DNA from: an uncultured Candidatus Saccharibacteria bacterium
Lineage (GTDB): Bacteria; Patescibacteriota; Saccharimonadia; Saccharimonadales; Saccharimonadaceae
Assembly: GCA_947304395.1 (NCBI GenBank)
Contig: CAMZBA010000002.1
Coordinates: 48,593 to 112,592 of the forward strand
DNA length: 64,000 nt
Direction: 5' to 3'
Part shown: positions 41,560 through 59,898 of the stretch, piece by piece
How the letters are laid out: every line of letters begins with the position of its first letter
How positions within the stretch are numbered: position 1 is the first letter of the stretch
Notes under the pieces: model-generated
The model's database searches: none
What the model saw: the letters and a program-made list of their open reading frames with translations, nothing else
What the model was told of the DNA's origin: nothing
Made by a program: the position numbers and the translations under genes

Positions 41560-41560
41560 C

Positions 41561-42226: not shown

Positions 42227-42753
42227 TATTTATATAATACGCAAGCAATATTAAAAAGCACACTATCACTAATCAGCGCTAAATATTATTGGCGGCAATA
42301 CCGACTATCTTGCCAATACTTTTATTAAGACCGGTTTTGATAAGCTCCTGCCGCAAATTCTTCAACAAAAAGTCTGGGTCGGTAGCTCCGCTGGCTCTTG
42401 CGTTTTATGCCGCAAAGAGCCTGATTGGGCCCAAAAGACTATTTACCAAGAAGATCACCAAGCCGATCGCTTCATGAATATTGTGCCAATCGTTTTCCTT
42501 CCGCATCTACATGGCTTCTATAAATTCGATAGAGCAGAGGTAGCCAAAGCTTCTAAACTCACCGACCTGCCAGTCTACGCCATGTCGGACAAATCCGCCC
42601 TCAAAGTCGAAGACATTAATCATCCAGTGCTAATTGGCGAAGATTATCTAGTCACTCAAAACGGAACAATTTAACCACACAATAAACATCCACCGGCCTA
42701 GTCGGAGTGTTTTGATATAAACTCTTCATTCTTCTCATAAAACCGGGGGCAAA

Positions 42754-43291
42754 ATGCCTTTTTGTTCAATGCACCAGTTTTTAAAAAAATGGCGCATATT
42801 TGACAAGTCGTTTTATTTATTCCGTGGTCTCGATAGTAACGTTCACGGACACCTTAATGTTATTCGTCGCGCAAAAGAGCAATGCGATTTTCTGATTGTT
42901 GGCATCTCTACTGACGAGCTGGTCCAAAAAACGAAGAATAAAACTCCAGTAATTCCATTTGAGGATCGCTGCAAAAATATTACTGCATTAAAATATGTAG
43001 ATAAAGTTGTTCCGCAAGAAAATAAAGATAAGATTGCAGCTTTTTATAAATATAAATTTGACGCCATGTTTGTAGGGGACGGCTGGAAAGGCTCAGAATT
43101 ATTTAGCAAATGCGAAGCAGAGCTTAAAAAAATATGGCGCCGATGTTGCGTATTTTCCATACGCAAAAAAGGTTTCGTCAACAAAACTTCGTCAATATTT
43201 AAAATACGGTAAGCGTCCAGTAGATATCAACGACGTTTCAATAACTACTGCTGATATCCCAAAAGAATTCCGAGCAGACGAAATTAAATAA
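42754..43291 (+). pseudogene. glycerol-3-phosphate cytidylyltransferase (TagD-like) pseudogene
   Basis: Core similarity to the intact copy at 63322 (LIVGISTDELV...VIPFEDRC...KYVDKVVPQ...FVGDGWKG). The N-terminal GxFDxxHxGH motif is degraded. A +1 frameshift near 43125 (A-run) separates the rest from the expected KYGADVAYFPYAKKVSSTKLRQYL. Confidence 0.65.
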
Positions 43292-43341
43292 AACGAAAAG
43301 CTCAAATAAACTATCATCGCGATAATACCACAGCTACAATA

Positions 43342-43617
43342 AAAGCCGCCGAAAACGCTAAATCCGAAGAATCATTAGTAATTACCAGCACGGAAGGCTA
43401 CATCTATGTTCCAGCGCCATGGTGAAAGATGGACTACTTCGAGATTCGTTACGAAAATCAAGAAAATAACAAACGCTATTTCTATCAGCTTGACGGTGAA
43501 GGTATTCGCTATGAATTAGTAGCATTCGCCAGAGCCTCTCAGGACAGCAAAACTAATTATAGCTACGTCACCGAAGAAGAATCCATCGCCATCCGCAAAG
43601 TAATGGAAGACTTATAA
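43342..43617 (+). pseudogene. C-terminal fragment of an oxidoreductase-like gene with an in-frame TGA
   Basis: The frame reads ...TSTEGYIYVPAPW*KMDYFEIRYENQENNKRYFYQLDGEGIRYELVAF.... There is no N-terminal part, and the TGA lies at 43423-43425. The family assignment (Gfo/Idh/MocA-like) is tentative. Confidence 0.35.
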
Positions 43618-43712
43618 ATTGCTAAAATATAAACATTATTTCCGTTTACATATTATCTAGCTCAAACTTTTATCATCCTCCAAACATTTTAAGGCTAATA
43701 AAAAAACACTGT

Positions 43713-45371: not shown

Positions 45372-45439
45372 ACATTAATGATATCAGATAATAAACACCC
45401 CCCTTAAGCTGCCTAATTCTTCTATGCTAACTAAAAAGC

Positions 45440-45793
45440 TACAACCATCACACCGTCAGCATACATCAGGACGCGCCCCGCAAAAGTCAAAGAGGACTTT
45501 ATTTTTGTTCGAGAAATGCAAAGCCGTCATTGGCGCCATTAACTATGTAGACGAAGTTATCGAATCCGAGCGCGAAGACAGCGACGTCTGGGCTCATCAT
45601 AAGTACAACATGCTATTTTGTCAATTCCGATCATAAAGGCACCGAACACTTTAATCACTACGAAGAATACTTCGCCAATAAAGGCGTCGAAATAGTCTAC
45701 TTCCCATATACTCAGGGCACTAGTAGTACCAAACTTCGCAAAGCGCTAAGCGCTATCGCTGAAGCAGCAGAGAAGAACAAAAACTCAAATTAG
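45440..45793 (+). pseudogene. second TagD-like cytidylyltransferase remnant (5'-truncated, frameshifted)
   Basis: ...KAVIGAINYVDEVIES... is followed, after a frameshift near 45612, by YFVNSDHKGTEHFNHYEEYFANKGVEIVYFPYTQGTSSTKLRKALSAI. This matches the C-terminus of the 63322 copy. Confidence 0.6.
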
Positions 45794-46197
45794 TGTTTTT
45801 CACAAAATAGCTCTTTGCGACTATCAAAATTATACTTCTCACCCACAATATCCATTAAGCACTTTTCAATATCTCCGTTGCCACGATAAGGCTCTTCCAT
45901 CCCTTCTATAGGCATACATATACACGGAAAAGCAATCCATTCACCAGTTTTTTGATTAATAGCGCACAAGAATTGAATTCCATAAGGGTCACATCCGCAT
46001 TGTTCTGCAATATATTCATATTCTCGAGAACGTTCATCGTCGACATGGTCCGTATCTACGCGAACAGTCAGCGATAATTGCCTCCAGTCAGAAAATGCAT
46101 AGTCGCACTCTATATGTGCATGGCATTCATTTTTATAGGGCTTGTATAACGGTTCTATTTTTGCGATATCCTCAATGGTTTTAGGGCTCATGTCCAA
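45790..46197 (-). CDS. hypothetical Cys/His-rich protein (135 aa)
   Basis: Clean ORF. Its stop overlaps the tagD remnant stop. No recognisable domain. Confidence 0.5.
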   Translation of the reverse strand: MDMSPKTIEDIAKIEPLYKPYKNECHAHIECDYAFSDWRQLSLTVRVDTDHVDDERSREYEYIAEQCGCDPYGIQFLCAINQKTGEWIAFPCICMPIEGMEEPYRGNGDIEKCLMDIVGEKYNFDSRKELFCEKH

Positions 46198-46644
46198 AGT
46201 TCCTTTCTATCTTAAATATTATTCTCCCCCATACAGATTATTACCCCTTGGGGTCTAATAAAAGAAAAAATTGATGCGATTTTAGATAATAATTATAATA
46301 ACAATAGATTAATGATAAAGCCATAATAATAGTAGAGCTAGATAGTCCAGTTCATTTTCACAAAGAAACACTCGGACTCCAGCTTCCCATTACAGTAAAC
46401 GGAAAAGAGTGTTATAAATACCTTCGATGTGGAATGTTACACTGCGGCGGAACAAAAAAGATACTCTCTTAGTTGCGATAGTAAGAACGCCATCCATCTA
46501 GGTAATGCGATAACAATAAGAGTTATTTCGACTAATTGATTATGGAAAAACTAGCTGAATCAAAAAAATGAGGCCTCGGCTCCGCTATCCAGCAGTGATG
46601 TACCTCATAAAACTATGATATATCAATGCAATACTATAGTCAAT

Positions 46645-47028
46645 TTACTTTATTTCTTTTATCTTGTCGTCATTAACTATAACAAGCATTTTTCGCACCC
46701 TCTTTCCGAATAAATTAACCTGTCTCTCAACTTCTTTTAGACATTTACTCTCATTAACATGCATACGTCTTAAATCGATTATTATATTATCCGACTGACG
46801 CAAGGCATTTCTAATGTTATTTTCTATCGTACGACTACTATTGCCAGTCGGTGATTTAATTTCCCATTTCTCGCCTAAATAATAAATATCAGGAGTTCTA
46901 TAACTCGCCTCTTCAAGAAATCGTACGTCGCCTTTAGTGATTAGAACTATTGCCGCCATCATCTCATGATCATGAATAAGTCTCTTCCTTGGACATATTA
47001 TTCTATACTTTCTACTCATATAGTTCAT
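46645..47028 (-). CDS. PD-(D/E)xK nuclease-fold protein (toxin-domain-like)
   Basis: TPDIYYLGEKWEIKSP matches a D...ExK core, followed by QSDNIIIDL. Start re-called to ATG 47028 (MNYMSRKY...) because the longer track ORF overlaps the opposing gene. Confidence 0.45.
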   Translation of the reverse strand: MNYMSRKYRIICPRKRLIHDHEMMAAIVLITKGDVRFLEEASYRTPDIYYLGEKWEIKSPTGNSSRTIENNIRNALRQSDNIIIDLRRMHVNESKCLKEVERQVNLFGKRVRKMLVIVNDDKIKEIK

Positions 47029-47131
47029 ATTAACCGTGCAACGGGTGGCAACAAAAACGTAAGTTCGATTAATTAATAGATTACTTCGACTAGGAGCACT
47101 CCCAAATCTAGATAGTCCGTCATGTATATTT

Positions 47132-47506
47132 ATGACCGGTTTACCGGGAGCAGGAAAAACAGAATTCACAAAAACTATCATCGCCGAGTCTCAAATTAAA
47201 GTTGTTCGTATCGATATGGACGAAATTGCCGAGCAAATTGAATCATATACACCACAAGACGCTGACAAGTTTAGGCTCGGTGCATCAATACTACAAACAG
47301 AAATTTTTAAAAAATGCAGATCAAAGTATTATCCATTTATTATGGACGGGACTATGTCACACAACATAACCTTAAATTGCATATTATCTTGCATAAGAAA
47401 AGGCTATCACGTTAAAGTAACTTACATTAAACAACATCCCCAATTGGCTTGGCAATTCACTAAAGCACGAGAAAAATCGATAATAAATAGTAAAAACATG
47501 CGATAA
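47132..47506 (+). CDS. short P-loop kinase, zeta-toxin/AAA_33-like (possibly truncated)
   Basis: MTGLPGAGKT Walker A sits at the very N-terminus, with FIMDGT (Walker B-like). At 124 aa it is about half the usual length. The frame is open upstream to 47063 without a start codon. Confidence 0.45.
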   Translation: MTGLPGAGKTEFTKTIIAESQIKVVRIDMDEIAEQIESYTPQDADKFRLGASILQTEIFKKCRSKYYPFIMDGTMSHNITLNCILSCIRKGYHVKVTYIKQHPQLAWQFTKAREKSIINSKNMR

Positions 47507-47596
47507 TTCAAAAACATTATGCTCAAGCTTTTTGTTTCATATGAACTTTAATATCCTTAATTAGTATATAATTACAGTATGAGAAAGGAGAGAAAT

Positions 47597-47758
47597 ATGG
47601 ATAATACTGCCGTACTCGAACCTACTTTTATTAACCTTGACGATAAAAGGCAAAAGAAAGACAAAAAGACAATCGATCAAAAGAAACTCAATAAAATAAT
47701 CGACAGCATTAAAGATTCACTTCCGGACAGCGACCATGGCGAATCTCATCTACAATAA
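47597..47758 (+). CDS. small basic protein (53 aa), antitoxin-like position
   Basis: AAAGGAG SD 7 nt before ATG 47597. Overlaps the PIN-like gene by 23 nt. Below the track cut-off. Confidence 0.4.
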   Translation: MDNTAVLEPTFINLDDKRQKKDKKTIDQKKLNKIIDSIKDSLPDSDHGESHLQ

Positions 47759-48287
47759 AGACGAAATCGCCCAATATGCAAATGGGTTTATACTAGTAGA
47801 TAACACGGCACTAATTGACGCCTCAAGAGAAGAGGATAGCGCGATGGCGCAGTTTTTGACACGTCTGACAGAGGTGGATTGCGATCTAATATCAACACAG
47901 GCCGTCATGCAGGAATTTACCAGAGGAGCGAAAAATATCACTCAAAGCAATAAGTTCATAGAATTTTTGCAAGCATTAAATATTGAATCCGTTAATTGCA
48001 ATGAAAAACAATTCTTATCCAAGGAAAACGCGCTATTTCGAATCGGATATTGTCAAACCGCAAAGAAGGCAAGCTATGCTGATATGAATTTAGCGCTATT
48101 AGCCTATATTTATAGATCCACAAATATAGGAATATTAACTAGTAATTATTTAGATTTTCCAACCAATCTCTTCGAGAGAACTACATTCATATCATACATT
48201 TGCGCCGACACCATAAGAACCCACGCCATCTTTAAAGTACACTCAGATGCCATACTTGCCAAAATTCTAAAGGAATATAACCAATAG
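47736..48287 (+). CDS. PIN-like domain protein
   Basis: FILVDNTALID (first acidic residue), ...EFTRG..., and ADMNLALLAY...IGILTSNYLDF (distal acidic residues), in the order expected for a PIN fold. Confidence 0.45.
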   Translation: MANLIYNKDEIAQYANGFILVDNTALIDASREEDSAMAQFLTRLTEVDCDLISTQAVMQEFTRGAKNITQSNKFIEFLQALNIESVNCNEKQFLSKENALFRIGYCQTAKKASYADMNLALLAYIYRSTNIGILTSNYLDFPTNLFERTTFISYICADTIRTHAIFKVHSDAILAKILKEYNQ

Positions 48288-48468
48288 TTTAATCAACGAA
48301 ATCTCCCACCAATGCTACAATCGGCATATATCGAACTTTCTTCTTGCCGCATAATGTTCCAAGAATTTATGCTACAAAAGAACGTTTATTTGCGCCCACA
48401 TCAAGACATGTAATAATATTCATTAAACTTTAAGTTTAAAACAAACGCAAAGTAGCAGCACTACTTCT

Positions 48469-48876
48469 CTAGAATAGGCCACCTTTACACATAATCAGCC
48501 CAATCACTGCCGACAATGCGCCAAACAACACAAAGAATAGAGCAGGGGTTGCAATGGCCGTATCTGGTTTTTCAACACTTACCAGCGTACCTATCTTCTC
48601 CCAACTCGCCTCGATCGTTACATTATCAAATGGTATCGTGAATTTATTATTCCTAATCGAAATTGTGCCATCCTCATTCTTTATTACATCTTTTTCTTCA
48701 AAGACTACCTCTTCACCATTATCAGACGTGAGCTTCAACCTCTTCAGGGCGAACCCAGGACTCGCAACCACTTTAAGCGTCACTACTTCGTCGCCCTTGG
48801 CGCTACCTTGCGCCTCAATCGTGACATTACCGTCCGTTTTAGTCTTAATGGTAAAGCGGAAATTAATATCTGCAGT
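48469..48876 (-). pseudogene. 3' remnant of a cell-surface repeat protein with C-terminal TM anchor
   Basis: The frame is open from 48876 with no ATG or signal peptide. It reads ...GNVTIEAQGSAKGDEVVTLKVVASPGFALKRLKLTSDNGEEV...FTIPFDNVTIEASWEK (InlB-B/Listeria-Bacteroides-repeat-like), then a hydrophobic anchor. Confidence 0.4.
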
Positions 48877-48990
48877 TTAGGTAGCCTCGGCAGCGGCTCG
48901 GACGATATTCTTCGTCAGATAATCATAGGTATAACTTCCGGAGTTGTTGCCAATACCATTTCTGTCGACTTTAAAACTGCTTTAGACGCC

Positions 48991-49191
48991 ATGCAAAGAA
49001 AGATATATATTAAACGTCACCGCAACAAAATCTACGATGCATTATTTAAAGAAATAATTACAAGAAAAAACAAATGGGACTTAGATGAAATTAATAGGCT
49101 ATTCTATTTTACAGACAAAGAGTCGGAATTTTTACTACGCAAATTTAGATATCACAAAAACAATAAAGACGAATGGGTGCGCAATAAGTAG
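48991..49191 (+). CDS. possible small basic protein (66 aa)
   Basis: Internal ATG of the 127-aa track ORF. No clear SD sequence and no motif. Confidence 0.2.
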   Translation: MQRKIYIKRHRNKIYDALFKEIITRKNKWDLDEINRLFYFTDKESEFLLRKFRYHKNNKDEWVRNK

Positions 49192-49193
49192 CC

Positions 49194-49829
49194 TTAATAC
49201 GTCAACCACATACTAACACCACCATGATGTGAACATGCTCCGCGCCCAGTAGCATTGCTTCTGGTCCCGTCTCTACAAATAGCACCATATCTCGTGCCGT
49301 TGCCATAACTCGGCGCCCTATATGTTGGTGCTGGCTTAACGTAATAACTCCAATGCAAAGTCGTTCCTGGATATGCATCATACCAACAATTGAACTTTGA
49401 ATTGTCCGCACGACATTCTGCGAGCGCTTTATCTCTTTGTTTTGTCCATGATATTTTATGTTCACATTCGTCTCTCGCGCTTTCGGTTTCATATTCAACG
49501 CCATTGCTGCATTTAAAGAATTGTTTCGTACCGATAACGACTATTTTATTCGTCGGTTCTTTTTCGACCTTTTCAGATTTCTTTCTACGGTTGGTTTCGT
49601 CACCAAATCTACTCGTTACTTCATAGGTTACAGATTTTGATCCGTCTTTTCCGTCTTGTGTAACCTTAGTTATTCCTTCACGAAGAGTATTATCATATTT
49701 GGTTACGGTAGAGTAGGGAATAGCCTCTTGCTTAGTAAAATCCTCCGTAGAGTAACCGCTACCAAAAAGTGCCCATGTACCAAATGGTATACCTGCGAGT
49801 AATAACCAAGCTTTGACTTTCTCTTTCAT
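49194..49829 (-). CDS. secreted G5-domain protein with C-terminal DUF3761
   Basis: Signal peptide. G5-like segment (STVTKYDNTLREGITKVTQDGKDGSKSVTYEVT...KIVVIGTK). C-terminus reads GAICRDGTRSNATGRGACSHHGGVSMW. Confidence 0.7.
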   Translation of the reverse strand: MKEKVKAWLLLAGIPFGTWALFGSGYSTEDFTKQEAIPYSTVTKYDNTLREGITKVTQDGKDGSKSVTYEVTSRFGDETNRRKKSEKVEKEPTNKIVVIGTKQFFKCSNGVEYETESARDECEHKISWTKQRDKALAECRADNSKFNCWYDAYPGTTLHWSYYVKPAPTYRAPSYGNGTRYGAICRDGTRSNATGRGACSHHGGVSMWLTY

Positions 49830-49927
49830 TAATCTATATTATACCATATTTTTATTAATTTATCAATGAACAAACGGGACCATAACCATCACTTTATCTA
49901 TAACCTTTATGCTATAATAAAACCATC

Positions 49928-50917
49928 ATGGAGCAGGGAGGTAAAAGCAAAAATATCCTATTTTTAGCCGTCGCTATCCTTTTCCCGCCATTCTTCCCGC
50001 ATTATTACGCCAAATATCTCGCACCGACTCGACCAAAATATCAAAAACCTATATATGCAGTCGGCCATGCCTGGCTTATTATTTGGCTCTTTATCGCCAC
50101 TACAACCCTCCCAACTCTTCAGAAACCCCAATACGAACAAGCCAGTTACAACTCTACTCCTAGCTACGCCTTTGCTTCTGATGCTTACGCGGAACAAAGT
50201 TCCGCCTACGAGCAGAAATTCTACGCCGAACTCAAAAAAGCTCAGCCTATCAAAACCGAAACCAAGACTAAGACCGTCACCCAATCTCAAAGCACTACTA
50301 GTCAAACCCCAAGCTCCACACAGAAGCAAAACACTAAATCTCAAACCACAGCTAATACTACCTCCGCCATGTCCGGCATCAAGATTGCCGAGGCGGACAA
50401 TTCGCCATATCTTCGCGCCAACTACGGCAAAGGTTGGAATGTTGGCACAGGATGCAATATCCGCTCACGTCTCCTTACTGCCCAATCTACCGTACCGGTC
50501 AAAACCTCGAATGGCTGCCTTGTTACTTACGGATCCTGGATCGATCCATACTCTGGCGCCAAGCTAACTGGCAATCCTTATCAGGGCGATGGCGAAGATA
50601 ACGATCTTGATATCGACCATATCATCCCGCTTCGTTACGTTAACCAACATGGCGGCTACGCATGGTCTCACACTCAAAAACAAAATTACGGCAAAAGTTT
50701 GTCCGCCATGAACAATGGCGTATATATTGCTGTGTCCTCCAAAGAAAATCGCCGAAAAAGCGACCAAGGTCCTGCCGACTATTATCCAAGCAATCCGAAT
50801 TTTTACTGCGAATACGCCAAACGTTGGCGCGATATTGCTCGAACGTATTCAATTTCACTCTCTCAACGCGACTACAACAAAATTGAAGGAGCCCTATCTC
50901 AATGCGGCATCAAGTGA
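49928..50917 (+). CDS. membrane-anchored extracellular HNH/DUF1524-type nuclease
   Basis: Two N-terminal TM helices, a Thr/Ser/Gln-rich linker, then DLDIDHIIPL...SKENRRKSDQGPADYYP (the His-Me finger pattern of the GmrSD C-terminal/DUF1524 family). Confidence 0.65.
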   Translation: MEQGGKSKNILFLAVAILFPPFFPHYYAKYLAPTRPKYQKPIYAVGHAWLIIWLFIATTTLPTLQKPQYEQASYNSTPSYAFASDAYAEQSSAYEQKFYAELKKAQPIKTETKTKTVTQSQSTTSQTPSSTQKQNTKSQTTANTTSAMSGIKIAEADNSPYLRANYGKGWNVGTGCNIRSRLLTAQSTVPVKTSNGCLVTYGSWIDPYSGAKLTGNPYQGDGEDNDLDIDHIIPLRYVNQHGGYAWSHTQKQNYGKSLSAMNNGVYIAVSSKENRRKSDQGPADYYPSNPNFYCEYAKRWRDIARTYSISLSQRDYNKIEGALSQCGIK

Positions 50918-51123
50918 ATCAAAAAGCTCTTGAAGACTCCATCTCTAACGGCTACATTATTACATTGTTGATTATTATTCCGCCCGTCGGTTTCTACTTT
51001 GCTGCCAAATACCGTAAAAAATGGACGCATCGCCCATTATTTGTGGTCGCATACGTTATATATCTCGTCCTAATCATACTCGGGCTCTACTTTTTGGGAA
51101 CATACCCAGGAGCTGTCCGATGA
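50902..51123 (+). CDS. small two-TM membrane protein
   Basis: 73-aa ORF overlapping both neighbours. Its PPVGFYFAAKYRKKW segment resembles the N-terminus of the product of 49928..50917. Confidence 0.45.
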   Translation: MRHQVNQKALEDSISNGYIITLLIIIPPVGFYFAAKYRKKWTHRPLFVVAYVIYLVLIILGLYFLGTYPGAVR

Positions 51124-52634
51124 GCAAAGATGTCACCGATTACTCGCCGCAGGAATATGCACATATCTACCGGCAATTAAACGCAAAATATCGTTCTAGC
51201 TTTAATACTGAACGCCAAGAACTCTCCGCAATTAAACAATCTGCCCAATCCGAAATATCCGCATTAAAAATCGACCTTACCAACGTTCGACAACAATACA
51301 TTATTGGCTCCTATGGATCAGCCATAGTTTACATCGACCGTCTCGAATGTGGTAATAGTGTAATAAATTTCAACGAACCATACATCGTTGAGCCATATTC
51401 AACCAAAATTCGCGAAATCTATGGCTACTACAAAAACGGCAACCCGCGCACGCATCTCGTCAACTACTCGTTTGCGCGTTTCGTATCAAGCGAATATACA
51501 ATCGATATCGCTGCCGGCAACACTAAGACCGAAGCCAAGCAGCTGATTAATGATCTCAAACAAAAAATCGCTGCTAATGCCACGAAAAAACCAGAATTAG
51601 ACCAGCAAGTTGCCGAAATCGAACAAAAAATTCAAGCCGCTGAAGCAAAGCTAGCCGAGGACCTCGCTACTGCCAAAGAGCATCACCAAGATCAACGCCA
51701 AAAATATACAAACGCAATCGACCGTCTTTTTTCGTCAGGCACATCAACACAATATCGACATATTTTTAGGCCGTCTCGCCTAATATTATTAGCTTGTTCA
51801 TTATTACCCGGACTTGCAATTCTATTGTGCAGCTTTTCTGGCTATTCGACATTTTTTAAAACAATCGCCGAATCAAACTACGATTACGATATCGTCGTCA
51901 ACGATGAAATAACTCTCGACTGCAACCTCAACTACGACAACGCAAAACATTACTTCTATTGTGAGCAACAGGAATATACTAGTAAAGTCTCCAAAACCGA
52001 ATCAACCGATTTTACTAATAATAATGGCAAACTTAGCCCCACCGCTTCGGATACTTTTACAGCCGTTACACCACTGCAAATCATCCCTTCTAGCAAATGG
52101 GCGATCGAAGATATCAGCTTCAACAAAACCGCCGAAGCTTTTAGCAAATCTTCCGACAAACTTAGCCTATATAACACTTTTCTTGGATTGACCGTCGCAC
52201 AAAAAGAAGTCCGTATTAATTGGAATTTCTCGCAAGAAGACAAAGACCTCATGCGCAAAGTCTGGAGCGAATGGAAAACCGAACAAGAAAATAAAGCCCG
52301 CGAACAATTAGCCGCCGAAATTAAGGCTAAAGAAGAAGCCGCCAAGAAAGCCGCCGAGGAGGCAGCGAAAAAGGCTGCCGAAGAAGCTGCGAAAAAGGCC
52401 GCCGAGGAAGCAGCCAAGGAGGCAGCTCGCATAAAAGCCGCCGAGGAAGCTCGCAAATCTCAAAATAGCATCACGCCAAGCCCAAGCACGCCCAACACAA
52501 CCAGCCCCAATAACGGAGCGGGGCAGCAATCGGGTGTTCGGACTGGCGCCATCTGCAATGACGGGACCAGTAGTACGGCCACAGGACGCGGCGCCTGCTC
52601 TCGTCACGGCGGCGTCAAATATTGGACATATTAG
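51120..52634 (+). CDS. membrane protein: coiled-coil N-terminus, one TM, Ala/Lys/Glu repeat, C-terminal DUF3761
   Basis: Start re-called to ATG 51120 (ATGA overlap with the upstream gene). TM helix LILLACSLLPGLAILLCSF. (E)EAAKKAA repeat. C-terminus reads GAICNDGTSSTATGRGACSRHGGVKYW. Confidence 0.65.
   Translation: MSKDVTDYSPQEYAHIYRQLNAKYRSSFNTERQELSAIKQSAQSEISALKIDLTNVRQQYIIGSYGSAIVYIDRLECGNSVINFNEPYIVEPYSTKIREIYGYYKNGNPRTHLVNYSFARFVSSEYTIDIAAGNTKTEAKQLINDLKQKIAANATKKPELDQQVAEIEQKIQAAEAKLAEDLATAKEHHQDQRQKYTNAIDRLFSSGTSTQYRHIFRPSRLILLACSLLPGLAILLCSFSGYSTFFKTIAESNYDYDIVVNDEITLDCNLNYDNAKHYFYCEQQEYTSKVSKTESTDFTNNNGKLSPTASDTFTAVTPLQIIPSSKWAIEDISFNKTAEAFSKSSDKLSLYNTFLGLTVAQKEVRINWNFSQEDKDLMRKVWSEWKTEQENKAREQLAAEIKAKEEAAKKAAEEAAKKAAEEAAKKAAEEAAKEAARIKAAEEARKSQNSITPSPSTPNTTSPNNGAGQQSGVRTGAICNDGTSSTATGRGACSRHGGVKYWTY
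52332..52427 (+). repeat. in-frame 24-bp tandem repeat (4 units, EEAAKKAA)
   Basis: The units are gaagaagccgccaagaaagccgcc, gaggaggcagcgaaaaaggctgcc, gaagaagctgcgaaaaaggccgcc and gaggaagcagccaaggaggcagct. Confidence 0.8.
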
Positions 52635-52738: not shown

Positions 52739-52764
52739 GAAAAATCCCGCACATCCGTGCGGGA
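52739..52764 (-). terminator. rho-independent terminator of 52772..53383
   Basis: Stem tcccgcac / gtgcggga with loop atcc, and a T-run on the minus strand. A near-identical copy lies at 53938-53966. Confidence 0.65.
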
Positions 52765-52771
52765 ATAAATG

Positions 52772-53383
52772 TCACTCTCCGGGCTTTATTACAATCGCAT
52801 TGCGACGCCGCTTAACCTTCAAATCTACATCGTGCCAGTACCGATCGTTCAGACGCCCCTCCGCAAGGTATTCGTCGTACCGATCGCTGTCGATGGAAGC
52901 GGCCTCAAACGCCTCTTTATGTAACTCATCGCGAACAAACCACCGAAGCACATTCACGCCGTCTTTGGTGACCACATAGATAGAGTACTCTTTGTACGTA
53001 GTATATGTGCAAACCATATCGCCGTTGCGCACACCCAACATCACAATATCTAAAAAATCACTCCGTATGATACTACGAGTTTTCGCAGCCTGGCAATTCG
53101 GCTCCACAATCCGACAGTAGTCGAGGTCCTCGTCGTAATCCTTCATTAGCACGAGATGCGTTTCTCTCGAACGAGGACGTTTGGAAGTAATTATCGGAAG
53201 ACCAGCCAACTTGGACTCAGACGTGAATCTCTGTATTATAGTCAGATCTTCTCGCCATCCATACAGTCGCCCTCCGACACCTCCGTCCACTAACGCTACG
53301 ACGGTTTCGCCAATACCAAATACTGCAAACGCCTGGCCGTCAAGGGTCTTCACCTTTAGCTGTATGCCAAAATAAACTCCCAT
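52772..53383 (-). CDS. MG[VI]YF-family protein (member 1, MGVYFG type)
   Basis: Starts MGVYFG. Shares GW.(E/D)DL, (Y/H)LVL..(D)Y, AKTRS(I/V)(I/V)R and NGDMVC blocks with the other members. GGAGG SD present. Confidence 0.7.
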   Translation of the reverse strand: MGVYFGIQLKVKTLDGQAFAVFGIGETVVALVDGGVGGRLYGWREDLTIIQRFTSESKLAGLPIITSKRPRSRETHLVLMKDYDEDLDYCRIVEPNCQAAKTRSIIRSDFLDIVMLGVRNGDMVCTYTTYKEYSIYVVTKDGVNVLRWFVRDELHKEAFEAASIDSDRYDEYLAEGRLNDRYWHDVDLKVKRRRNAIVIKPGE

Positions 53384-53412
53384 TTTCTCACCTCCTCTTG
53401 GAACGGGAATTA

Positions 53413-53452
53413 TTAATGTGCATTAGAGTAACTTTATATTGTGATTATATCA
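53413..53452 (-). promoter_or_regulatory. extended -10 promoter plus TAATG-N2-CATTA inverted repeat upstream of 52772..53383
   Basis: The minus strand reads TGaTATAAT (53452-53444), then cacaatataaagttactctaatgcacattaa. The block is conserved with 56496-56528. Confidence 0.45.
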
Positions 53453-53488
53453 CAAATAGTCAAATAAGTCAATACTATCGTATTAACT

Positions 53489-53923
53489 CAGCACCTTTGC
53501 AACATTTACGACGGAGTCATAAACCTTAAGCCTAATAATCTGGCAGTTCATTCAGATGCGTGCGTGGAGTCGAAGAGATAGTTGGTATCCGCCAAGAACA
53601 GACAGACAGGCGGAAGCTAGATATGGGGTTATCTTTTTGTCTTACTTGGTTTTCTAATGCAATATGAGAGTTTAGAGCTAACCATTTACGTTTCCATCTC
53701 CAGATAGTTGTACGGCTCACACCAAATCTATCCGCAACTATTTGAACGGATAATTCATCTATGAAAAGCAATTTCATTGCTTTTCCTCTCGCTTTTTCTA
53801 GGCTAGGGTTGGTAGAATAACTCATAGGACGGGTCTCCTTTATTTAAGTGGTATTAAACAAAGTATATGACTCGTCCTTTTTTGTTGGCTATTGCCAGCT
53901 AGCTATGTTGCAAAGGTGCTGAA
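53489..53923 (-). mobile_element. degenerate IS/MITE-like element bounded by perfect 18-bp inverted repeats
   Basis: TCAGCACCTTTGCAACAT at 53489-53506 and its exact reverse complement at 53906-53923 flank a truncated transposase HTH ORF. Confidence 0.6.
53532..53825 (-). pseudogene. transposase N-terminal HTH fragment (no catalytic domain)
   Basis: LSVQIVADRFGVSRTTIWRWKRKW is typical of IS3/IS481/IS630-type HTH leaders. The ORF ends after 97 aa with no DDE region. Confidence 0.55.
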
Positions 53924-53937
53924 CGGTCTACGCCCAT

Positions 53938-53966
53938 TAAAAATTCCCGCACTTCCGTGCGGGAAT
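53938..53966 (-). terminator. rho-independent terminator of the four-gene MG[VI]YF operon
   Basis: Stem ttcccgcac / gtgcgggaa with loop ttcc, and a T-run on the minus strand. Confidence 0.65.
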
Positions 53967-53991
53967 AACCATCACTCTAAAACAAAAAGGT

Positions 53992-54615
53992 TCAATGCTT
54001 CCTCTTACGCCGCTTTCTCTTCGGTTCGAGACTCATATCGTCCCAGTGCTCATAAATGCAGCCGTTGTATCTGAAATCTAGATACTCCCCCAGGCCGCTT
54101 GCCTGAAAAGCCTGATTATCTTTTAATTTATCGAGCAAAGAATAATAACTACTTTGCACGAACCCGATGCGCCCCTCCAGCGCAAAGAACAGGCTGCACG
54201 CATGTTGAGGGTTAATCACGCAAACCATGTTCTTATTGCGAAGTTCTACGATGGCAATATCGCTAGCCACCGCCTCATTGTCCGCATAGAGGTCAACATT
54301 CTCCTCTCTGCGCACAACGCTTCGAGTTTTTGCATGTTGCCCTCTGAGCTCTATGACGGAATCTCGCTTCAGAAAACCATAAAAGTAGTCTTTCTTCAGA
54401 ACAACATACATTTCATTCTCATCCGACGGCTTCAGCAAGAGCAGAGAACTACGCGATACACCAAACGGCGTAAGTGGCAACTGCTCAAAGATCAAGCCGT
54501 CACACCATCCGTTAAGCTCACCTTCCAGAGAAGGGTCCGCCTTCGCAATGACCCGACCCCCAGAGTAAACAAGCCCATCCTTCACGTGGCACGGCGTACC
54601 GAAATAAACACCCAT
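53992..54615 (-). CDS. MG[VI]YF-family protein (member 2, MGVYFG type)
   Basis: Start re-called to MGVYFG (ATG 54615) after GAGGGGGGTG. Family blocks GWCDGL, YVVLKKDY, AKTRSVVR and KNMVCV are present, with a basic tail KRKRRKRKH. Confidence 0.7.
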   Translation of the reverse strand: MGVYFGTPCHVKDGLVYSGGRVIAKADPSLEGELNGWCDGLIFEQLPLTPFGVSRSSLLLLKPSDENEMYVVLKKDYFYGFLKRDSVIELRGQHAKTRSVVRREENVDLYADNEAVASDIAIVELRNKNMVCVINPQHACSLFFALEGRIGFVQSSYYSLLDKLKDNQAFQASGLGEYLDFRYNGCIYEHWDDMSLEPKRKRRKRKH

Positions 54616-54626
54616 TTTCACCCCCC

Positions 54627-55166
54627 TCATTCAGATAAAAGTGGCCAGAGGACACTATCGTCTCCCGTAGACAGTTTGTTCAGACATGGCGAATACCGCC
54701 ACTCTTTTAGACGATCAAGTCTACTCTCGACAAATACGGAGCCGTCATCCGCTACGACGTATACCACCCTTCGCCGACTATAATCGGTAACGCATAACAT
54801 ATCCCCCCTGCATACCTTCAGGACCGCAACGTCATATACACCCTCGCAGCCCCTAATTCCTGGCGCGTAATACAGGACTTTTATTGACTCGATACCCGTA
54901 CGCGTTGTTATTATTTCTTCATCGCACTCATTGCCTTTACCATGAAGAGTCGCAAGAACCAGGTAGGTGTCATCACTTTCCTGGCGGGAAATCAGCAGAC
55001 GTCCATCGGGGTTGACCTGCAGAGATAAGTCCGGCCGCCACCGAACCAATGGTTCTTTGGCGAAAGTCTTGTCCGCCAGCAGGATGGGGCGACCATGAAA
55101 ATAGAGCCCAATCCCACAACCAGACCTATCGCCTACGGTTAACGGAACATCGAAATAAATACCCAT
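54627..55166 (-). CDS. MG[VI]YF-family protein (member 3, MGIYFDVP type, 179 aa)
   Basis: Start re-called to ATG 55166 after AAGGAG. It is close to identical to member 5, including a 96-bp identical DNA tract at 54945-55040. Confidence 0.75.
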   Translation of the reverse strand: MGIYFDVPLTVGDRSGCGIGLYFHGRPILLADKTFAKEPLVRWRPDLSLQVNPDGRLLISRQESDDTYLVLATLHGKGNECDEEIITTRTGIESIKVLYYAPGIRGCEGVYDVAVLKVCRGDMLCVTDYSRRRVVYVVADDGSVFVESRLDRLKEWRYSPCLNKLSTGDDSVLWPLLSE

Positions 55167-55206
55167 CTTTTCATCTCCTTTTTTAGTGTAGAGTTGTCGA
55201 TAAACA

Positions 55207-55914
55207 TTACCATTCCTTTTTAGGATAAACAGGATACCAGTATCTAGGACCAAATGAATTCAAGGAATTCTTCACTTTCTCGCTCAGCGGCATGGTCCTG
55301 TCACTGAGTACGCGCTCACGCAAGCCGTCATATGTTTCAGAAGTAAAAGACTCCACGCCATTTTCCGAAACCAAATAGAGCGTCAAATTGTTTGTCTCAA
55401 TACAGCAAAACATATCGTCCTTTTGAGCTTCAAATACCAAAACGTCTCCAAAAACGTTTTTACATAAAGGAATGCGTCCATAAGATCGAATCATCTCGGA
55501 CTGCTGGTCTTTCGGCTTCGTGATCATGCTAGGCGCAAGCCCGTCTCGCAGGCGTCTCGCCAAGACTAAATAAGTATAGTCTTTTTGAGAATGCGTCAGC
55601 TTCGGTAACGGAATGCCAGATGGAAAATCAACAAGGTCAGGTGAGAATTCAAGAGAAAACTTAATAAGCCGCGAATCATCTGCTTCAATTAAGCCACGCT
55701 CATTGACGTGCCATCCACCACGAACCACGCACGGTACTGGTATAATAGGCCTGTACTTTTTAGGCGGCGAATAATCGATCGATAAGTCGCTGTGCCATCC
55801 CTCAAACTCACTACATTCCGAGAATTGGCCATCTAGCGCAAAGATGTCCCGCTCGCCCAATTTTACCGTATCATATTCAGTTTTCTGCAGCGCTACGCCA
55901 AAATAAACCCCCAT
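55207..55914 (-). CDS. MG[VI]YF-family protein (member 4, MGVYFG type, 235 aa)
   Basis: Starts MGVYFG. Family blocks GWHSDL, TYLVLARRL and KDDMFCC are present, with an extra insertion of about 50 aa. Confidence 0.7.
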   Translation of the reverse strand: MGVYFGVALQKTEYDTVKLGERDIFALDGQFSECSEFEGWHSDLSIDYSPPKKYRPIIPVPCVVRGGWHVNERGLIEADDSRLIKFSLEFSPDLVDFPSGIPLPKLTHSQKDYTYLVLARRLRDGLAPSMITKPKDQQSEMIRSYGRIPLCKNVFGDVLVFEAQKDDMFCCIETNNLTLYLVSENGVESFTSETYDGLRERVLSDRTMPLSEKVKNSLNSFGPRYWYPVYPKKEW

Positions 55915-55926
55915 CTTTTCTCCCCC

Positions 55927-56466
55927 TCATTCAGATAAAATTGGCCAAAGGACACTATCGTCTTCCGTGGACAGTTTGTTCAGATATGGCGAATGTCGCC
56001 ACTCACTCAGACGATCAGGTCTACTCTCGACAAATACGGAGCCGTCATCCGCTACGATGTATACCATCCTTCGCCAACCATAATCAGTAACACACAACAA
56101 ATCCCCCCTGCATACCTTCAGGACCGTAACGTCATATACGCCCTCGCAGGCCCTAATTCCTTTCGCGGAATACAGGGCTTTTATTGATTTACTATGCGCA
56201 TGCGTCGTGTATATTCTTTCATCGCGCTCATAACCTTTACCATAAAGAGTCGCAAGAACCAGGTAGGTGTCATCACTTTCCTGGCGGGAAATCAGCAGAC
56301 GTCCATCGGGGTTGACCTGCAGAGATAAGTCCGGCCGCCATCGAGCCAACGACTCTTCGGCGAAAGTCTTATCCGCCAGCAGAATAGGGGAACCATGAAA
56401 ATAGAACTCCACGCCACAACCAGGCCTGTCGCCTACAGTTAACGGAACATCGAAATAAATACCCAT
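55927..56466 (-). CDS. MG[VI]YF-family protein (member 5, MGIYFDVP type, 179 aa)
   Basis: First gene of the minus-strand operon. Same length as member 3 and offset from it by exactly 1,300 bp. Confidence 0.75.
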   Translation of the reverse strand: MGIYFDVPLTVGDRPGCGVEFYFHGSPILLADKTFAEESLARWRPDLSLQVNPDGRLLISRQESDDTYLVLATLYGKGYERDERIYTTHAHSKSIKALYSAKGIRACEGVYDVTVLKVCRGDLLCVTDYGWRRMVYIVADDGSVFVESRPDRLSEWRHSPYLNKLSTEDDSVLWPILSE

Positions 56467-56495
56467 CTTTTTATCTCCTTTTTAGTGTAGAGTTG

Positions 56496-56550
56496 TTAAT
56501 GTACATTAGAGTAACTTTATATATTATAGCATAATATATACGAAATTCAA
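56496..56550 (-). promoter_or_regulatory. sigma70-type promoter plus 12-bp palindrome TAATGTACATTA
   Basis: On the minus strand: TTGAAT (56550-56545), a 16-nt spacer ending in TGc, and TATAAT (56528-56523). The palindrome at 56508-56497 lies between the -10 element and the SD sequence. Confidence 0.5.
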
Positions 56551-56670
56551 GAAACACAGCCCATTGACATAAACGCATATATATCGCATAATATCCACAT
56601 GTCCGTACGGGACTGTTCTTTTTTGACACGATTACTGCACAAAGATTCTAGCCACGAAAGGGGGAACCAT

Positions 56671-57321
56671 ATGGCTAAAAAGGACTTATTAAACGTTGCT
56701 GTCGTCTGGACTGAAGATTTAGCGTGTCACGACGCACAGCTGGCCGCCGCTATCCATGAATGCGCCCGCACCATACCAGGCTGTAAATTCTATATTATCG
56801 GCACTGGCACCATTATCCGCAGCACCGAAGATGCGAACGTTGCCGTAGTTGGAAACGGCGACATTGACAGCAACGGCTTCGTAGTAGACCTGCCGTCCGT
56901 AGCTCGCAAGATTTACAACCTCAGAACCGGAGATTATCGATGCCGTTACGACGCCATCATTGTCATCACGCGGCAAAGATATGTGCGCTACTCCAGCCAT
57001 ACCAGTCCGGAGTACTACAGAAATGGCTCTGGCGTCATATCACTCGAAGGTTGGGCAGATGACGAAGTCGAAATGGTGGCATCCTTGATGTTAGAACACG
57101 TCATGGGGCACATGTTCTATCACGACGGCCTCCAAGTCCACTGCGAATGCCCGACCTGCACTATGGCCAATCTCGCAAACCACGACAGCGTCCTGAATCT
57201 GATCAAGCACAGAAGCGCCTCTGGCCTGGATCATTTCTGCCCCGAATGTCAGCGATGGATCCGCGACAGCCCCCTCTGGTCCGACCAGCCGTCAGAAGTT
57301 ATTCGCGGCGAACACTCCTAA
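56671..57321 (+). CDS. archaemetzincin (M54)-like protein, HVMGH instead of HExxH (member 1)
   Basis: Start re-called to ATG 56671 after GAAAGGGGGAA. LEHVMGHMFYHDGLQVHCECPTCTM ...(24 aa)... CPEC fits H.xxH...C-x4-C-x-M...CxxC, but the catalytic Glu position is Val. Confidence 0.55.
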   Translation: MAKKDLLNVAVVWTEDLACHDAQLAAAIHECARTIPGCKFYIIGTGTIIRSTEDANVAVVGNGDIDSNGFVVDLPSVARKIYNLRTGDYRCRYDAIIVITRQRYVRYSSHTSPEYYRNGSGVISLEGWADDEVEMVASLMLEHVMGHMFYHDGLQVHCECPTCTMANLANHDSVLNLIKHRSASGLDHFCPECQRWIRDSPLWSDQPSEVIRGEHS

Positions 57322-57435: not shown

Positions 57436-58017
57436 TCAGAACGGGGAGAGAGACGAAAGATCATCGCTCAAAACTGTAAAAGCGGCATACCGCTCCGCCA
57501 GTCTTTCTTCAAGGGTTTTACGAAGACAAAGCGCCATATAGGCAAGCAGAACACTTCCGTCGATAACCCCGTCTTTGTAAATGCGCCGAACAATCGGCGG
57601 GAAAAGGGTCGCATTAATACTCTCGAGGTCGCCATCTTCCGCAATAAAACAGAGCAGAGACATAAAAATAGCCGGATCAAGATCGCCAATCGCCTGGACA
57701 AGACCATCATTTTCCCCTTTACTACCCAGGGCCACCCGGATTTCTTCGGGAATTGCATCGATATCTTTTGCCTCAATCCCCACACAAGCAACCACACATC
57801 TCAGCAACCGGACAATATCGACCTCCATAGCCAGGCGATCAATCAACTCGCTGGCCATAGCCTCGTCGAGGCTTCCACTTAAGGACACTGCCGAGGCGAA
57901 CATGAGTATAGTAGCCATCACGCCCTTGAAAGCATGACAGTCATCCATCATTGCCCGAATGGCCACAATGTCATTCTTCCGTATCGCATTCCACGCCTTT
58001 TCATCAATAGCGCTCAT
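57436..58017 (-). CDS. hypothetical all-helical protein (193 aa)
   Basis: CAGGAGGT SD 7 nt before ATG 58017. Ala/Leu/Asp-rich. No recognisable motif. Confidence 0.55.
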   Translation of the reverse strand: MSAIDEKAWNAIRKNDIVAIRAMMDDCHAFKGVMATILMFASAVSLSGSLDEAMASELIDRLAMEVDIVRLLRCVVACVGIEAKDIDAIPEEIRVALGSKGENDGLVQAIGDLDPAIFMSLLCFIAEDGDLESINATLFPPIVRRIYKDGVIDGSVLLAYMALCLRKTLEERLAERYAAFTVLSDDLSSLSPF

Positions 58018-58203: not shown

Positions 58204-59898
58204 ATGGCGCAAATCAACCATCGAAAGCGTGCTAATTATTGCACCAAGCCATACGAGACTAGGCGCAGAATGCCATTTTCTGGTGCCGTTATAATTGTTG
58301 CATTTTTCATTTGTAGCTTCGTGTTGCTTTCAGAAATATCCTACGGTCTTTTTAATGCCATCCGCAATATTTTCGTAGCCATCTGCCCGAAGCTCCTTAA
58401 CGCCCCAGCTATCACGAAAGGCAATTTCTATTTGGCCACTTGCGCCATCACTATTGCTGTATCCGCATATTTGTCGGCAAGGATTAAAAAGCGCATCTTT
58501 CCCGACATTATTATTCGGGATAAAAAATATATTTTGGCGCTATTCAAAGGGCGGGGGAGCAAATCGCCGCAGCCTACCCGCGCAAAGCTCATCAGCTTCA
58601 TCTATGGTAAAGGACCAATCAATCAGAAAACTCGCAACACGATATCTACCTTAATCAACGAAGGCATTACGCCCATATCGCAGTACATCGATCATAGCAG
58701 TGCGGATAACAATACCCTGTGTATCAACTCCAAGTGGGGCTCTGGCAAGACTACTGCGTTACTGATTGCCATCAACGAAAGTACCAAAGCTAGCAACCGC
58801 TACATCTACGAATCCGCATTCAAATATAGTGGCAACATTGGCGAGTTTATTAACGATATTCTCAAAACCATCAATGACGTTATGATCGAATCGTGCATCA
58901 AAAAGTCCGAGAATCTCAGCTCGCTCATAGAAAATTTTGACGGCGATCCAAAAGTCAACGTTCTAAATTACATCCTCAATTTATCGAACAACTCCAACGA
59001 TTTACTCTCTAGCGACATTATTCTCGAAATCAACCATCATTACGAACATTCCACTAGCGAAGCTGTCATTTTCGTTATTATTGACGACCTAGACAGATTA
59101 CAAGGCGAAGATGTCGTACGTGTATTATCGCTGCTTTCAATCATTAGAAACCTTTCGTTTGTCCGCCTTATTGTACCCGCGGATCTAGAAATCGTTGGCA
59201 AATCGCTTCACGCCTACGGCGTTGTAGATGCACATCGATTCATTGAAAAATATCTGCCAATCGGCCCAAGCATCGAGCTAAAAAGTGGCTACAAATATGC
59301 CGAAAAAATCATCCTCGACATGCTAGTTCGCGCCCAAAAAGGCTGGAAAAAGAATCCCGACGGCGCCTATCCTGCCTTTGCCGCCATTCTTATCGGCATG
59401 CTTGCAAAGAAAATGCGCGAGCTGACCATTAATCGCGACAATTTTCGATACAAATGGCTATGTTCCGACCCACATCAAAAAATAGCCAAACTAACTAGCC
59501 CCAGCGAAGAATTAACGCAACTATTACACTCGCCAATCGCATTATCCAGTTACGCAAATCGCACAAATAACATCTACAGCTGGAATGAAAAATTTGCCAA
59601 TTCCAAAAAATACCAACACATTATTTCCGCGCTCACTAAGAAAACCGAGTCCGATAAAGCCTCTATAAATGTTCAGGACGCATTCACGAATGACGATTAC
59701 GCCAACGTCGTAGAATCATGGGTTTTCGACTTCGTGGAAACCAACTGGGAACTACTTGGCTTTGCTATTCGCGACGTCCTAGACGAATTATCTAGTGTCA
59801 ATTACAACCAACTACCAAAAAATCCGGCCAAGCAATTTGTTTATGTATTTAACCAACTTTTCCCGGACGAAAAGCTCAAATACGTCAACACCATCTAG
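58204..59898 (+). CDS. KAP-family P-loop NTPase with N-terminal TM helices (Tmn-like)
   Basis: Two TM helices (aa ~25-50 and 75-95), Walker A SKWGSGKTTALL and Walker B VIFVIIDDLDRL, matching the PF07693 signature. Confidence 0.7.
   Translation: MAQINHRKRANYCTKPYETRRRMPFSGAVIIVAFFICSFVLLSEISYGLFNAIRNIFVAICPKLLNAPAITKGNFYLATCAITIAVSAYLSARIKKRIFPDIIIRDKKYILALFKGRGSKSPQPTRAKLISFIYGKGPINQKTRNTISTLINEGITPISQYIDHSSADNNTLCINSKWGSGKTTALLIAINESTKASNRYIYESAFKYSGNIGEFINDILKTINDVMIESCIKKSENLSSLIENFDGDPKVNVLNYILNLSNNSNDLLSSDIILEINHHYEHSTSEAVIFVIIDDLDRLQGEDVVRVLSLLSIIRNLSFVRLIVPADLEIVGKSLHAYGVVDAHRFIEKYLPIGPSIELKSGYKYAEKIILDMLVRAQKGWKKNPDGAYPAFAAILIGMLAKKMRELTINRDNFRYKWLCSDPHQKIAKLTSPSEELTQLLHSPIALSSYANRTNNIYSWNEKFANSKKYQHIISALTKKTESDKASINVQDAFTNDDYANVVESWVFDFVETNWELLGFAIRDVLDELSSVNYNQLPKNPAKQFVYVFNQLFPDEKLKYVNTI

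Follow-up and report, generated by a model that had tools for sequence, protein, structure and literature searches.

Why would a bacterium with a tiny genome keep a row of genes from one protein family that has no match in the profile libraries? The question is raised by a 64,000-nucleotide stretch of contig CAMZBA010000002.1 (assembly GCA_947304395.1, positions 48,593 to 112,592 of the forward strand) from an uncultured Candidatus Saccharibacteria bacterium, which is referred to here as the window. Its minus strand contains five genes, A to E (Table 1), whose products begin with MG[VI]YF. An earlier reading of the DNA, called here the original prediction, described them as an unrecognised family organised in two tandem two-gene modules. 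We found that this chromosomal locus holds an array of interchangeable cassettes of a lineage-specific orphan family, the members of which are soluble proteins of about 180–240 residues with a predicted all-β structure. Each transcription unit has one promoter that bears a putative operator, and the genes within a unit are translationally coupled. Closely related Saccharibacteria differ in their cassettes through duplication, reordering, loss or frameshift, and the basic-tailed B-type gene with its terminator is fixed at the 3′ end of the array. The array may encode a recombining repertoire of binding or neutralising proteins.

All five predicted open reading frames (ORFs) are present, and they are truly homologous rather than joined by a chance pattern. 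A hidden Markov model (HMM) of the family detected A–E with E values of 1e-54 to 1e-80 (7e-75 for gene E) and no other ORF in the window. The sequence blocks listed in the original prediction coincide with conserved alignment columns, which are W43, D46-L47, L69-V70-L71, D112, C125 and Y136/V138/G142 in the numbering of E. Pairwise comparison by BLASTP gave 81% amino-acid identity between C and E and 26–27% between A and B (E values 1e-10 to 1e-12), and the other pairs were marginal (20–27% identity, E values 0.002–0.7). C and E, which share about 87% of their DNA sequence, had been called nearly identical; this was overstated.

Word-indexed searching among 5.8 billion proteins yielded 19 clusters of the family, and an exhaustive HMMER search of 1.84 billion representative proteins gave 26 matches, two of which were proteins with Flg_new repeats (P0039 and P0041; PF09479). 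The two were rejected as relatives, since their matches were summed over six to seven copies of a ‘GYTF.GW[YR].D’ hairpin only. No family member matches PF09479 (Flg_new, the Listeria-Bacteroides repeat), and the likeness of this hairpin to the GWRxDL hairpin of the family is probably a convergent β-hairpin motif and not homology. All named sources of family members are metagenome-assembled genomes (MAGs) of Candidatus Saccharibacteria or Nanosyncoccaceae, and the sample labels suggest that they come from ruminant-gut metagenomes. The family comprises at least 17 subfamilies at about 45% identity, which are cited by number (cl2, cl3 and so on). The alignment of the whole family has no conserved stretch of 7–10 residues, and subfamily alignments were used for genome scans.

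The proteins A–E have no match in Pfam, NCBIfam, PADLOC or PHROGs, and 32 diverse members scanned singly against profile libraries gave no recurrent weak match. DUF600 and all other immunity families were without a match as well; a lone SUKH_5 hit (E value 0.1, one of the 32 members) was noise. A search of PDB sequences with the family profile also returned only noise (syntaxin, E value above 0.1). The database search with a family HMM that the original prediction had proposed thus found no characterised family. A mobile or viral origin of the family was rejected, since PLSDB plasmids, GenBank phages and IMG/VR viral contigs contained no relatives.

Genes E, D, C and B form one operon, as had been proposed, which is supported by a single promoter-like site before E and a single terminator after B. 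A strong Shine-Dalgarno sequence (SD) precedes each of the five genes. The TGA stop codon of E leads directly into the GGGGG(A/G) SD of D, and that of C likewise into the SD of B, as described in the original prediction. Gene A, the solo fifth gene, is a separate transcription unit beyond the relic of an insertion sequence (IS), with its own promoter and terminator. The leader of A (53407–53439) is 91% identical to positions 56490–56522 in front of E. The same promoter cassette, made up in order of a −35 box, TGnTATAAT, GTTACTCTAATG(Y)ACATTAACAA, AAGGAGGTG and the ATG, is found before every unit in all genomes and for subtypes cl5, cl6, cl8, cl9, cl11 and cl2. A palindrome with the consensus TAATG(T/C)ACATTA directly follows the −10 box in each of the family's transcription units, and it occurs in the window at only two sites, both of them family promoters. 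The extended palindrome motif is exact in eight loci, and the sites in other genomes include positions 9205–9240 of locus L001, 9259–9294 of L002 and 9204–9239 of L004. We infer that the palindrome is a putative repressor operator. No Rfam family scored above threshold in the array or its leaders.

The array varies in composition between related genomes. Homologues form arrays or clusters in the related loci that were checked, and every longer locus holds several members. The arrays comprise from three to at least ten members, in six different orders between conserved flanks. The subfamily order in the window is cl8-cl10-cl8-cl3, followed by the IS relic and cl5. Locus L001 has cl9-cl8-cl3; L004 and L006 have cl9-cl10-cl8-cl3; L008 has cl6-cl10-cl8-cl3; L015 and L016 have cl6-cl10-cl9-cl3; and L020 has cl10-cl9-cl8-cl3. 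The last order is also found in L018 and L019, where cl9 is split by a frameshift into two ORFs (7326–7936 in L018 and 1602–2109 in L019) in two independent metagenome samples. The frameshifted cl9 suggests that single cassettes are dispensable; an assembly error is also possible. Locus L009 has three members within 1.7 kb, and L011 has two members that are 4 kb apart. The B-type gene (cl3) is the last in every intact locus seen and is followed by the same terminator. The flanks, which encode the KAP NTPase, an epimerase, a 329-residue protein and DUF3761 proteins, are 91–97% identical between genomes, whereas orthologues within the array are 70–89% identical, and those of C 69–73% among L001, L004, L006 and L008. 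The D-type orthologues differ by large indels that lie between two strands, and they range from 188 to 244 residues in length. At a fixed chromosomal site, the array thus forms a hotspot that evolves fast and varies in content, in agreement with the diversifying locus of the original prediction. Housekeeping genes elsewhere in the window confirm the chromosomal setting.

The largest expansion seen is in L002 (4102–15664), a more distant relative with at least ten members in several units. Interspersed among them are a PCC/DUF296 gene, two genes similar to o216 and one for a membrane protein with DUF308. Pfam revealed no informative domain among the neighbours in the distant loci L011 and L002.

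The two halves of the operon contain a high-identity repeat, which extends from about 45 nucleotides before the start of E or C to the start codon of D or B and then drops to background. The identity profile places its copies at 56510–55914 and 55213–54615. D (cl10) and B (cl3) belong to old, distinct subfamilies, and orthologous loci run cl10-cl8-cl3, with cl8 in single copy. Since D and B are old subfamilies and the repeat is limited to the leader and the cl8 gene, E is a recent one-gene duplicate of C. E sits in the first slot of the array, which is held elsewhere by cl9, cl6 or cl10. The identity profile and the subfamily synteny contradict the duplication of a two-gene module, and the predicted arrangement of a conserved first and a diverged second partner does not stand. 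Repeats are present as a block of about 40 nucleotides at each gene start, as the common promoter-leader and as the common terminator, and they are obvious substrates for homologous recombination. Some cl8 alleles combine C-like with E-like segments in a mosaic, and cassette A is flanked by duplicated terminators.

The ratio of nonsynonymous to synonymous substitution rates (dN/dS, ω) is 0.16–0.21 for B orthologues, 0.28–0.35 for C orthologues and 0.24–0.66 for D orthologues. A comparison of dN/dS between modules had been proposed; the duplication covers one gene, and the pair of C and E has a relaxed ω of 0.56 (0.81 in residues 73–134). A sliding-window analysis of six cl8 sequences gave ω of 0.05–0.11 for residues 31–70 (0.05–0.2 in the N-terminal half overall), a local peak of about 1.5 for residues 71–90 and values of 0.2–0.5 further downstream. 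Selection is purifying apart from one putative hypervariable patch, and the genes are functional, with localised hypervariability.

AlphaFold and Foldseek, which the original prediction had proposed for both subtypes, gave confident all-β models without a neighbour in the PDB or BFVD. The AlphaFold2 model of E, calculated from a 21-sequence alignment, has a mean predicted local distance difference test score (pLDDT) of 76.7 and a predicted template-modelling score (pTM) of 0.77; the model of B, from 31 sequences, has a mean pLDDT of 81.2 and a pTM of 0.82. In both, 13 β-strands run in the same order and short helices follow at the C-terminus. The first strand begins at residue 2–3 with pLDDT above 90 in both models, and the basic tail of B is disordered (pLDDT below 50). 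Foldseek comparison of both models with the PDB gave template-modelling (TM) scores of at most 0.25, comparison of one model with BFVD gave at most 0.37, and nothing was found at E values below 0.001. The family and its predicted fold are without a known relative in the libraries searched (Pfam, NCBIfam, PADLOC, PHROGs, PDB and BFVD). No internal duplication was found by hhalign comparison of the N-terminal with the C-terminal half. The proteins A–E contain neither a transmembrane segment nor a signal peptide, and their isoelectric points are 5.3–7.0. The N-terminal half of the family is strongly conserved, and the C-terminal half is variable, with hypervariable loops and indels. Arg/Lys-rich tails end 11 members, which are of the cl3 and cl2 types.

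The hallmark of the family is its extreme N-terminus. All 76 distinct full-length members begin with M-[G/A/S/P]-[V/I]-[Y/F]-F, where the second residue is Gly in 57, Ala in eight, Ser in six and Pro in five. The codons of Gly2 and Phe5 vary among paralogues, and the constraint therefore acts on the protein. Methionine aminopeptidase removes the initiator methionine when the second residue is small. Judging from the small second residue of the family (G, A, S or P), removal of the methionine is expected, and the mature protein would then begin at residue 2. An N-myristoylation-like MGxxxG motif was rejected as an explanation, since many members carry Ala, Ser or Pro at position 2 and Asp at position 6. 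Only M1 and F5 are invariant among the 32 diverse members, and L41, D119, L161 and W191 are almost so. No catalytic constellation is conserved, which favours a scaffold or binding protein over an enzyme or toxin.

The 433-bp IS relic separates the terminator of B from the promoter of A, and related loci do not have it. Its ends are perfect 15-bp inverted repeats (CAGCACCTTTGCAAC, at 53489–53503 and 53907–53921), and it contains an IS630-like helix-turn-helix ORF, in accordance with the original prediction. The relic has no DDE domain, and the NCBIfam IS630 model is covered only at positions 3–40 of 299. It is a dead or miniature IS rather than a full IS630 element. Compared with locus L001, two copies of the array terminator enclose the relic, promoter, gene A and terminator in the window, and a 109-residue gene of L001 is absent. 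The guanine-cytosine (GC) content of the array is 0.466; as predicted, this is higher than that of the whole window (0.423), but it equals that of the conserved right flank (0.466), and the reading of the array as a GC island was therefore rejected. The contrast noted earlier is caused not by the array but by a low-GC block of glycosyltransferase and polysaccharide genes (GT4, TPP enzyme, sugar transferase) at 33000–50000, with a GC content of 0.36–0.361 against 0.44–0.47 elsewhere.

The array is bordered on its left by the divergently transcribed o216, by o193 and by a KAP-family P-loop NTPase, which has a weak PifA-like PADLOC match. The three genes are syntenic with the array in L001, L002, L004, L006, L008, L018 and L020. 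The recurrence of KAP and archaemetzincin-like genes beside the family, which had been raised as a question, is thus observed within the clade; however, it is a synteny of close relatives that is lost in the distant L011. The product of o216 has a Cys/His-rich, metzincin-like motif, H-V-M-G-H-M-F-Y-H-D…C-E-C-P-T-C-T-M…C-x2-C. Its assignment as an archaemetzincin (HExxHxxGxxH) was rejected, since the first His is followed by Val in place of the catalytic Glu and the spacing is tighter. It has no Pfam match at E values up to 1 and no Peptidase_M54 match, and its only likeness is to snake-venom metzincins (E value 0.035). The gene is as lineage-restricted as the array family, with six clusters in 5.8 billion proteins, and is duplicated in L002, where the array has also expanded.

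The right boundary of the variable locus is formed by genes at 49194–49829 (minus strand) and 51021–52634 (plus strand) and by the gene of the 329-residue protein (49928–50917), which are 91–96% conserved. Two proteins ending in the Cys-rich domain DUF3761 are encoded at this boundary, one of which is fused to G5 and the other to an Ala/Glu/Lys-rich, TolA-like coiled region. Further away, a 178-residue ORF (46645–47181, minus strand) matches the CdiA C-terminal toxin domain with its C-terminal 80 residues (PF18451, E value 9e-16). It has no long delivery region and is therefore an orphan or truncated contact-dependent-inhibition toxin module, and the downstream 135-residue ORF (45790–46197) could be its immunity gene. 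A 552-residue protein with an N-terminal caspase-like Peptidase_C14 domain (43713–45371, minus strand, E value 7e-19) was not found in the syntenic loci of relatives, and Fic genes are present in related loci. Two plus-strand genes (6320–8077 and 9989–11908) encode large proteins with a VirB2-like type IV secretion system (T4SS) pilin N-terminus (PF18895) fused to Big_2 Ig-like domains, which is an unusual pilin-adhesin architecture. Giant plus-strand ORFs of 1510 and 1410 residues (16361–20893 and 25549–29781) have no Pfam match at E values up to 0.001. A 475-residue protein (22318–23745, plus strand) matches the metallopeptidase MATCAP (microtubule-associated tyrosine carboxypeptidase; E value 1.5e-11), which is unexpected in a bacterium.

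Table 1 Features of the array and its left border (positions in the window; aa, amino-acid residues)
Feature	Position	Strand	Description
Intrinsic terminator after A	52745–52764	−	duplicate of the array terminator, 87% identical over 39 nt
Gene A	52772–53383	−	203 aa, MGVYFG, subfamily cl5; monocistronic cassette with own family promoter and terminator
Palindrome, second copy	53414–53425		TAATGCACATTA; leader of A
Promoter-like site of A	53444–53472	−	TTGACT-17-TGnTATAAT
IS relic	53489–53921	−	433 bp; 97-aa IS630-like helix-turn-helix ORF at 53532–53825
Intrinsic terminator after B	53943–53966	−	10-bp stem and T-run; kept after cl3 in all loci
Gene B	53992–54615	−	207 aa (ORF reaches 54630), MGVYFG, subfamily cl3; C-terminal tail PKRKRRKRKH
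Gene C	54627–55166	−	179 aa, MGIYFDVP, subfamily cl8
Gene D	55207–55914	−	235 aa, MGVYFG, subfamily cl10; indel-rich insertion between strands, residues ~50–105
Recently duplicated segment	55914–56521	−	leader, cl8 gene and junction to next start codon; twin at 54615–55222
Gene E	55927–56466	−	179 aa, MGIYFDVP, subfamily cl8; first gene of the operon, recent duplicate of C
Palindrome, 12 bp, perfect	56497–56508		TAATGTACATTA; directly after the −10 box of the operon promoter; putative operator
Promoter-like site of E-D-C-B	56523–56550	−	TTGAAT-16-TGnTATAAT; sigma70-like, extended −10; kept before the first array gene in L001, L004, L006, L008 and L015
o216, divergent neighbour	56671–57321	+	216 aa from Met25 of a 240-aa ORF (56599–57321); back-to-back promoter at 56564–56592
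o193	57436–58017	−	193 aa, helical; fast-evolving, 58–70% identical between genomes
KAP-family P-loop NTPase	58204–59898	+	conserved left boundary of the locus, 94–96% identical between genomes

Based on the organisation of the array and the predicted structures, a function can be proposed. The proteins are presumably non-enzymatic because no polar catalytic residues are conserved. Our best guess, which we hold tentatively, is that the array encodes non-enzymatic proteins that bind or neutralise others and form a recombining repertoire. Conflict between organisms would maintain and diversify such a repertoire, which would resemble immunity proteins or inhibitors. Its paralogues would each recognise a different protein, whether incoming or endogenous; the N-terminal half, which is conserved, would supply a scaffold or partner interface common to all, and the variable half would determine the specificity. 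Expression may be held by a common repressor. The KAP NTPase, the CdiA_C toxin domain and the caspase-like protease are conflict-type genes nearby and form the context for this proposal. Actinobacterial hosts have been shown to use Esx effectors in active attacks on Saccharibacteria, and the authors of that study expect the epibionts to have counter-measures (PMC13622651).

A precedent is provided by esaG (DUF600) in Staphylococcus aureus and tipC in streptococci, where strings of non-identical immunity paralogues recombine through conserved 5′ and 3′ blocks (PMC9484751). The array shares with them non-identical paralogues at one locus, strain-variable number and composition, conserved blocks at gene ends that could mediate recombination, expansion and loss, and small, presumably cytoplasmic and non-enzymatic products. 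In contrast to them, the array family is unrelated in sequence and structure and has no DUF600 or other Pfam match, there is no cognate toxin or type VII secretion system (T7SS) in the locus, and the array has a promoter with a dedicated putative operator, a last member that stays fixed and an extreme N-terminus that is invariant; immunity is known for esaG and tipC and is only a candidate function here. Patescibacteria also carry VirB2-like pilin arrays of 2–11 diverged paralogues (about 25% identity), which are thought to be host-adaptive (10.1101/2025.01.22.634366). These are tandem diverged paralogues in the same phylum, and the window itself carries T4SS_pilin genes; however, VirB2-like pilins are small, hydrophobic, Sec-dependent membrane proteins, whereas the MG[VI]YF proteins are soluble, all-β and without a T4SS_pilin match. 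The acquired interbacterial defence islands of Bacteroidales, which hold orphan immunity genes, are likewise strain-variable clusters of immunity type without adjacent toxins in gut bacteria. They mix many unrelated immunity families and are mobile and recombinase-associated, whereas the array consists of a single family at a fixed chromosomal position, with a dead miniature IS as the only mobile trace. The vsp and vsa loci of mycoplasmas resemble the array in their conserved 5′ leader and first codons, variable bodies and tandem layout favouring recombination. They encode lipoproteins with signal peptides and have phase-variable switches; the array has no signal peptide, invertible element or simple-repeat switch.

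Several observations weigh against a repertoire of binding proteins. No target, toxin or partner was identified, and no cognate toxin gene adjoins the array. Immunity genes usually lack a dedicated operator. The patch with ω above one comprises 20 codons in six sequences. The family is confined to a narrow clade, so that the conservation of its context mostly reflects shared ancestry and is not independent evidence. The fold comparison covered the PDB and BFVD only. A simple binder model leaves the strict conservation of the extreme N-terminus unexplained, as do all the alternatives.

A multi-subunit complex would likewise be in line with the tight translational coupling and the unchanging last member. 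The paralogues would then be subunits of a lineage-specific, hetero-oligomeric cytoplasmic assembly, perhaps joined through the invariant N-terminal β-strand and the conserved N-terminal half, and the basic-tailed B-type protein would be a constant anchor binding nucleic acid or membrane. One promoter, stop codons that abut the next SD, the same fold in both modelled subtypes, purifying selection on each subfamily, the presence of the B-type gene at the end of every locus, and an N-terminal half far more conserved than the C-terminal half are consistent with such a complex. However, genomes whose flanks are about 95% identical differ in composition, order and copy number; L002 and L015 lack cl8, L001 lacks cl10, and L018 and L019 have a frameshifted cl9; and the members are scattered and non-adjacent in L011. 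We consider a complex unlikely. The proteins could instead be effectors that a T4SS, for example, passes into competitors or the actinobacterial host, with a conserved N-terminal or basic C-terminal export signal and a variable half that sets the target specificity. The family is a lineage-specific expansion in an obligate epibiont with a reduced genome, A–E have no Sec signal, and the disordered Arg/Lys-rich C-terminal tails of the cl3, cl2 and cl5 types may resemble C-terminal T4SS signals. T4SS pilin genes are present in the window, and the T4SSs of bacteria in the CPR (candidate phyla radiation) have no relaxases and are believed to have been recruited to other roles (10.1101/2025.01.22.634366). 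Nevertheless, most subtypes (cl8, cl9 and cl10) have no basic tail, the pilin genes are 40 kb from the array, no T4SS ATPase is present in the window, and neither an enzymatic or known effector domain nor a sign of secretion was found. We regard delivered effectors as quite doubtful.

It is distinctly improbable that the paralogues are sensors or adaptors of a defence system built around the strongly conserved membrane KAP NTPase next to the array and a Zn-motif protein, in which they would recognise phage or other foreign proteins and signal to a constant effector. The synteny of the KAP NTPase, o216 and o193 in seven loci, the PifA-like match of the KAP NTPase, the strain-variability of the region, and the joint increase of family members and o216-like genes in L002 all fit such a system. 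Nevertheless, the linkage is seen in one narrow clade only and may be inherited synteny, the distant L011 has members without a detectable KAP or o216 gene, A–E have no PADLOC matches, and the KAP gene is transcribed separately. The tandem pairs of toxin and antidote suggested by the original prediction, each composed of a 179-residue gene and the following 207–235-residue gene, are very improbable, even though cl8 is tightly paired with the next gene and an orphan CdiA_C toxin ORF is located nearby. The members of each pair are homologous and have one fold, and no toxin, trafficking or secretion domain and no conserved catalytic residues were found in the single-domain proteins A–E. The duplication affected one gene only, and cl8 elsewhere precedes cl3 and follows cl10, cl9 or the promoter, so that the supposed modules are not units of inheritance.

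Saccharibacteria and other Patescibacteria have tiny genomes, yet the present clade devotes three to at least ten genes to one unmatched family, which suggests that its function is linked to a life as epibionts that is rich in conflict. The reach of the finding is set by the very narrow distribution of the family, with about 26 clusters from uncultured rumen-type MAGs. For work on microbial dark matter, the invariant N-terminus from Met1, a confidently predicted fold without a PDB neighbour and cassettes with a fixed terminal gene provide concrete handles. Among possible counter-measures of the epibiont, this regulated array, which varies between strains and encodes diversifying soluble proteins, is a concrete candidate. 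We speculate, at a quite low probability, that the array is a counter-defence repertoire with a new fold, consisting of cassette-shuffling, repressor-controlled cytoplasmic neutralisers on an N-terminal scaffold, for which the processed N-terminus would be essential. Each protein would be tuned by its variable half to a different effector, delivered by the host (for example by Esx/T7SS) or by a competitor. If true, this would be the first answer from the side of the Patescibacteria to the host attack described in PMC13622651.

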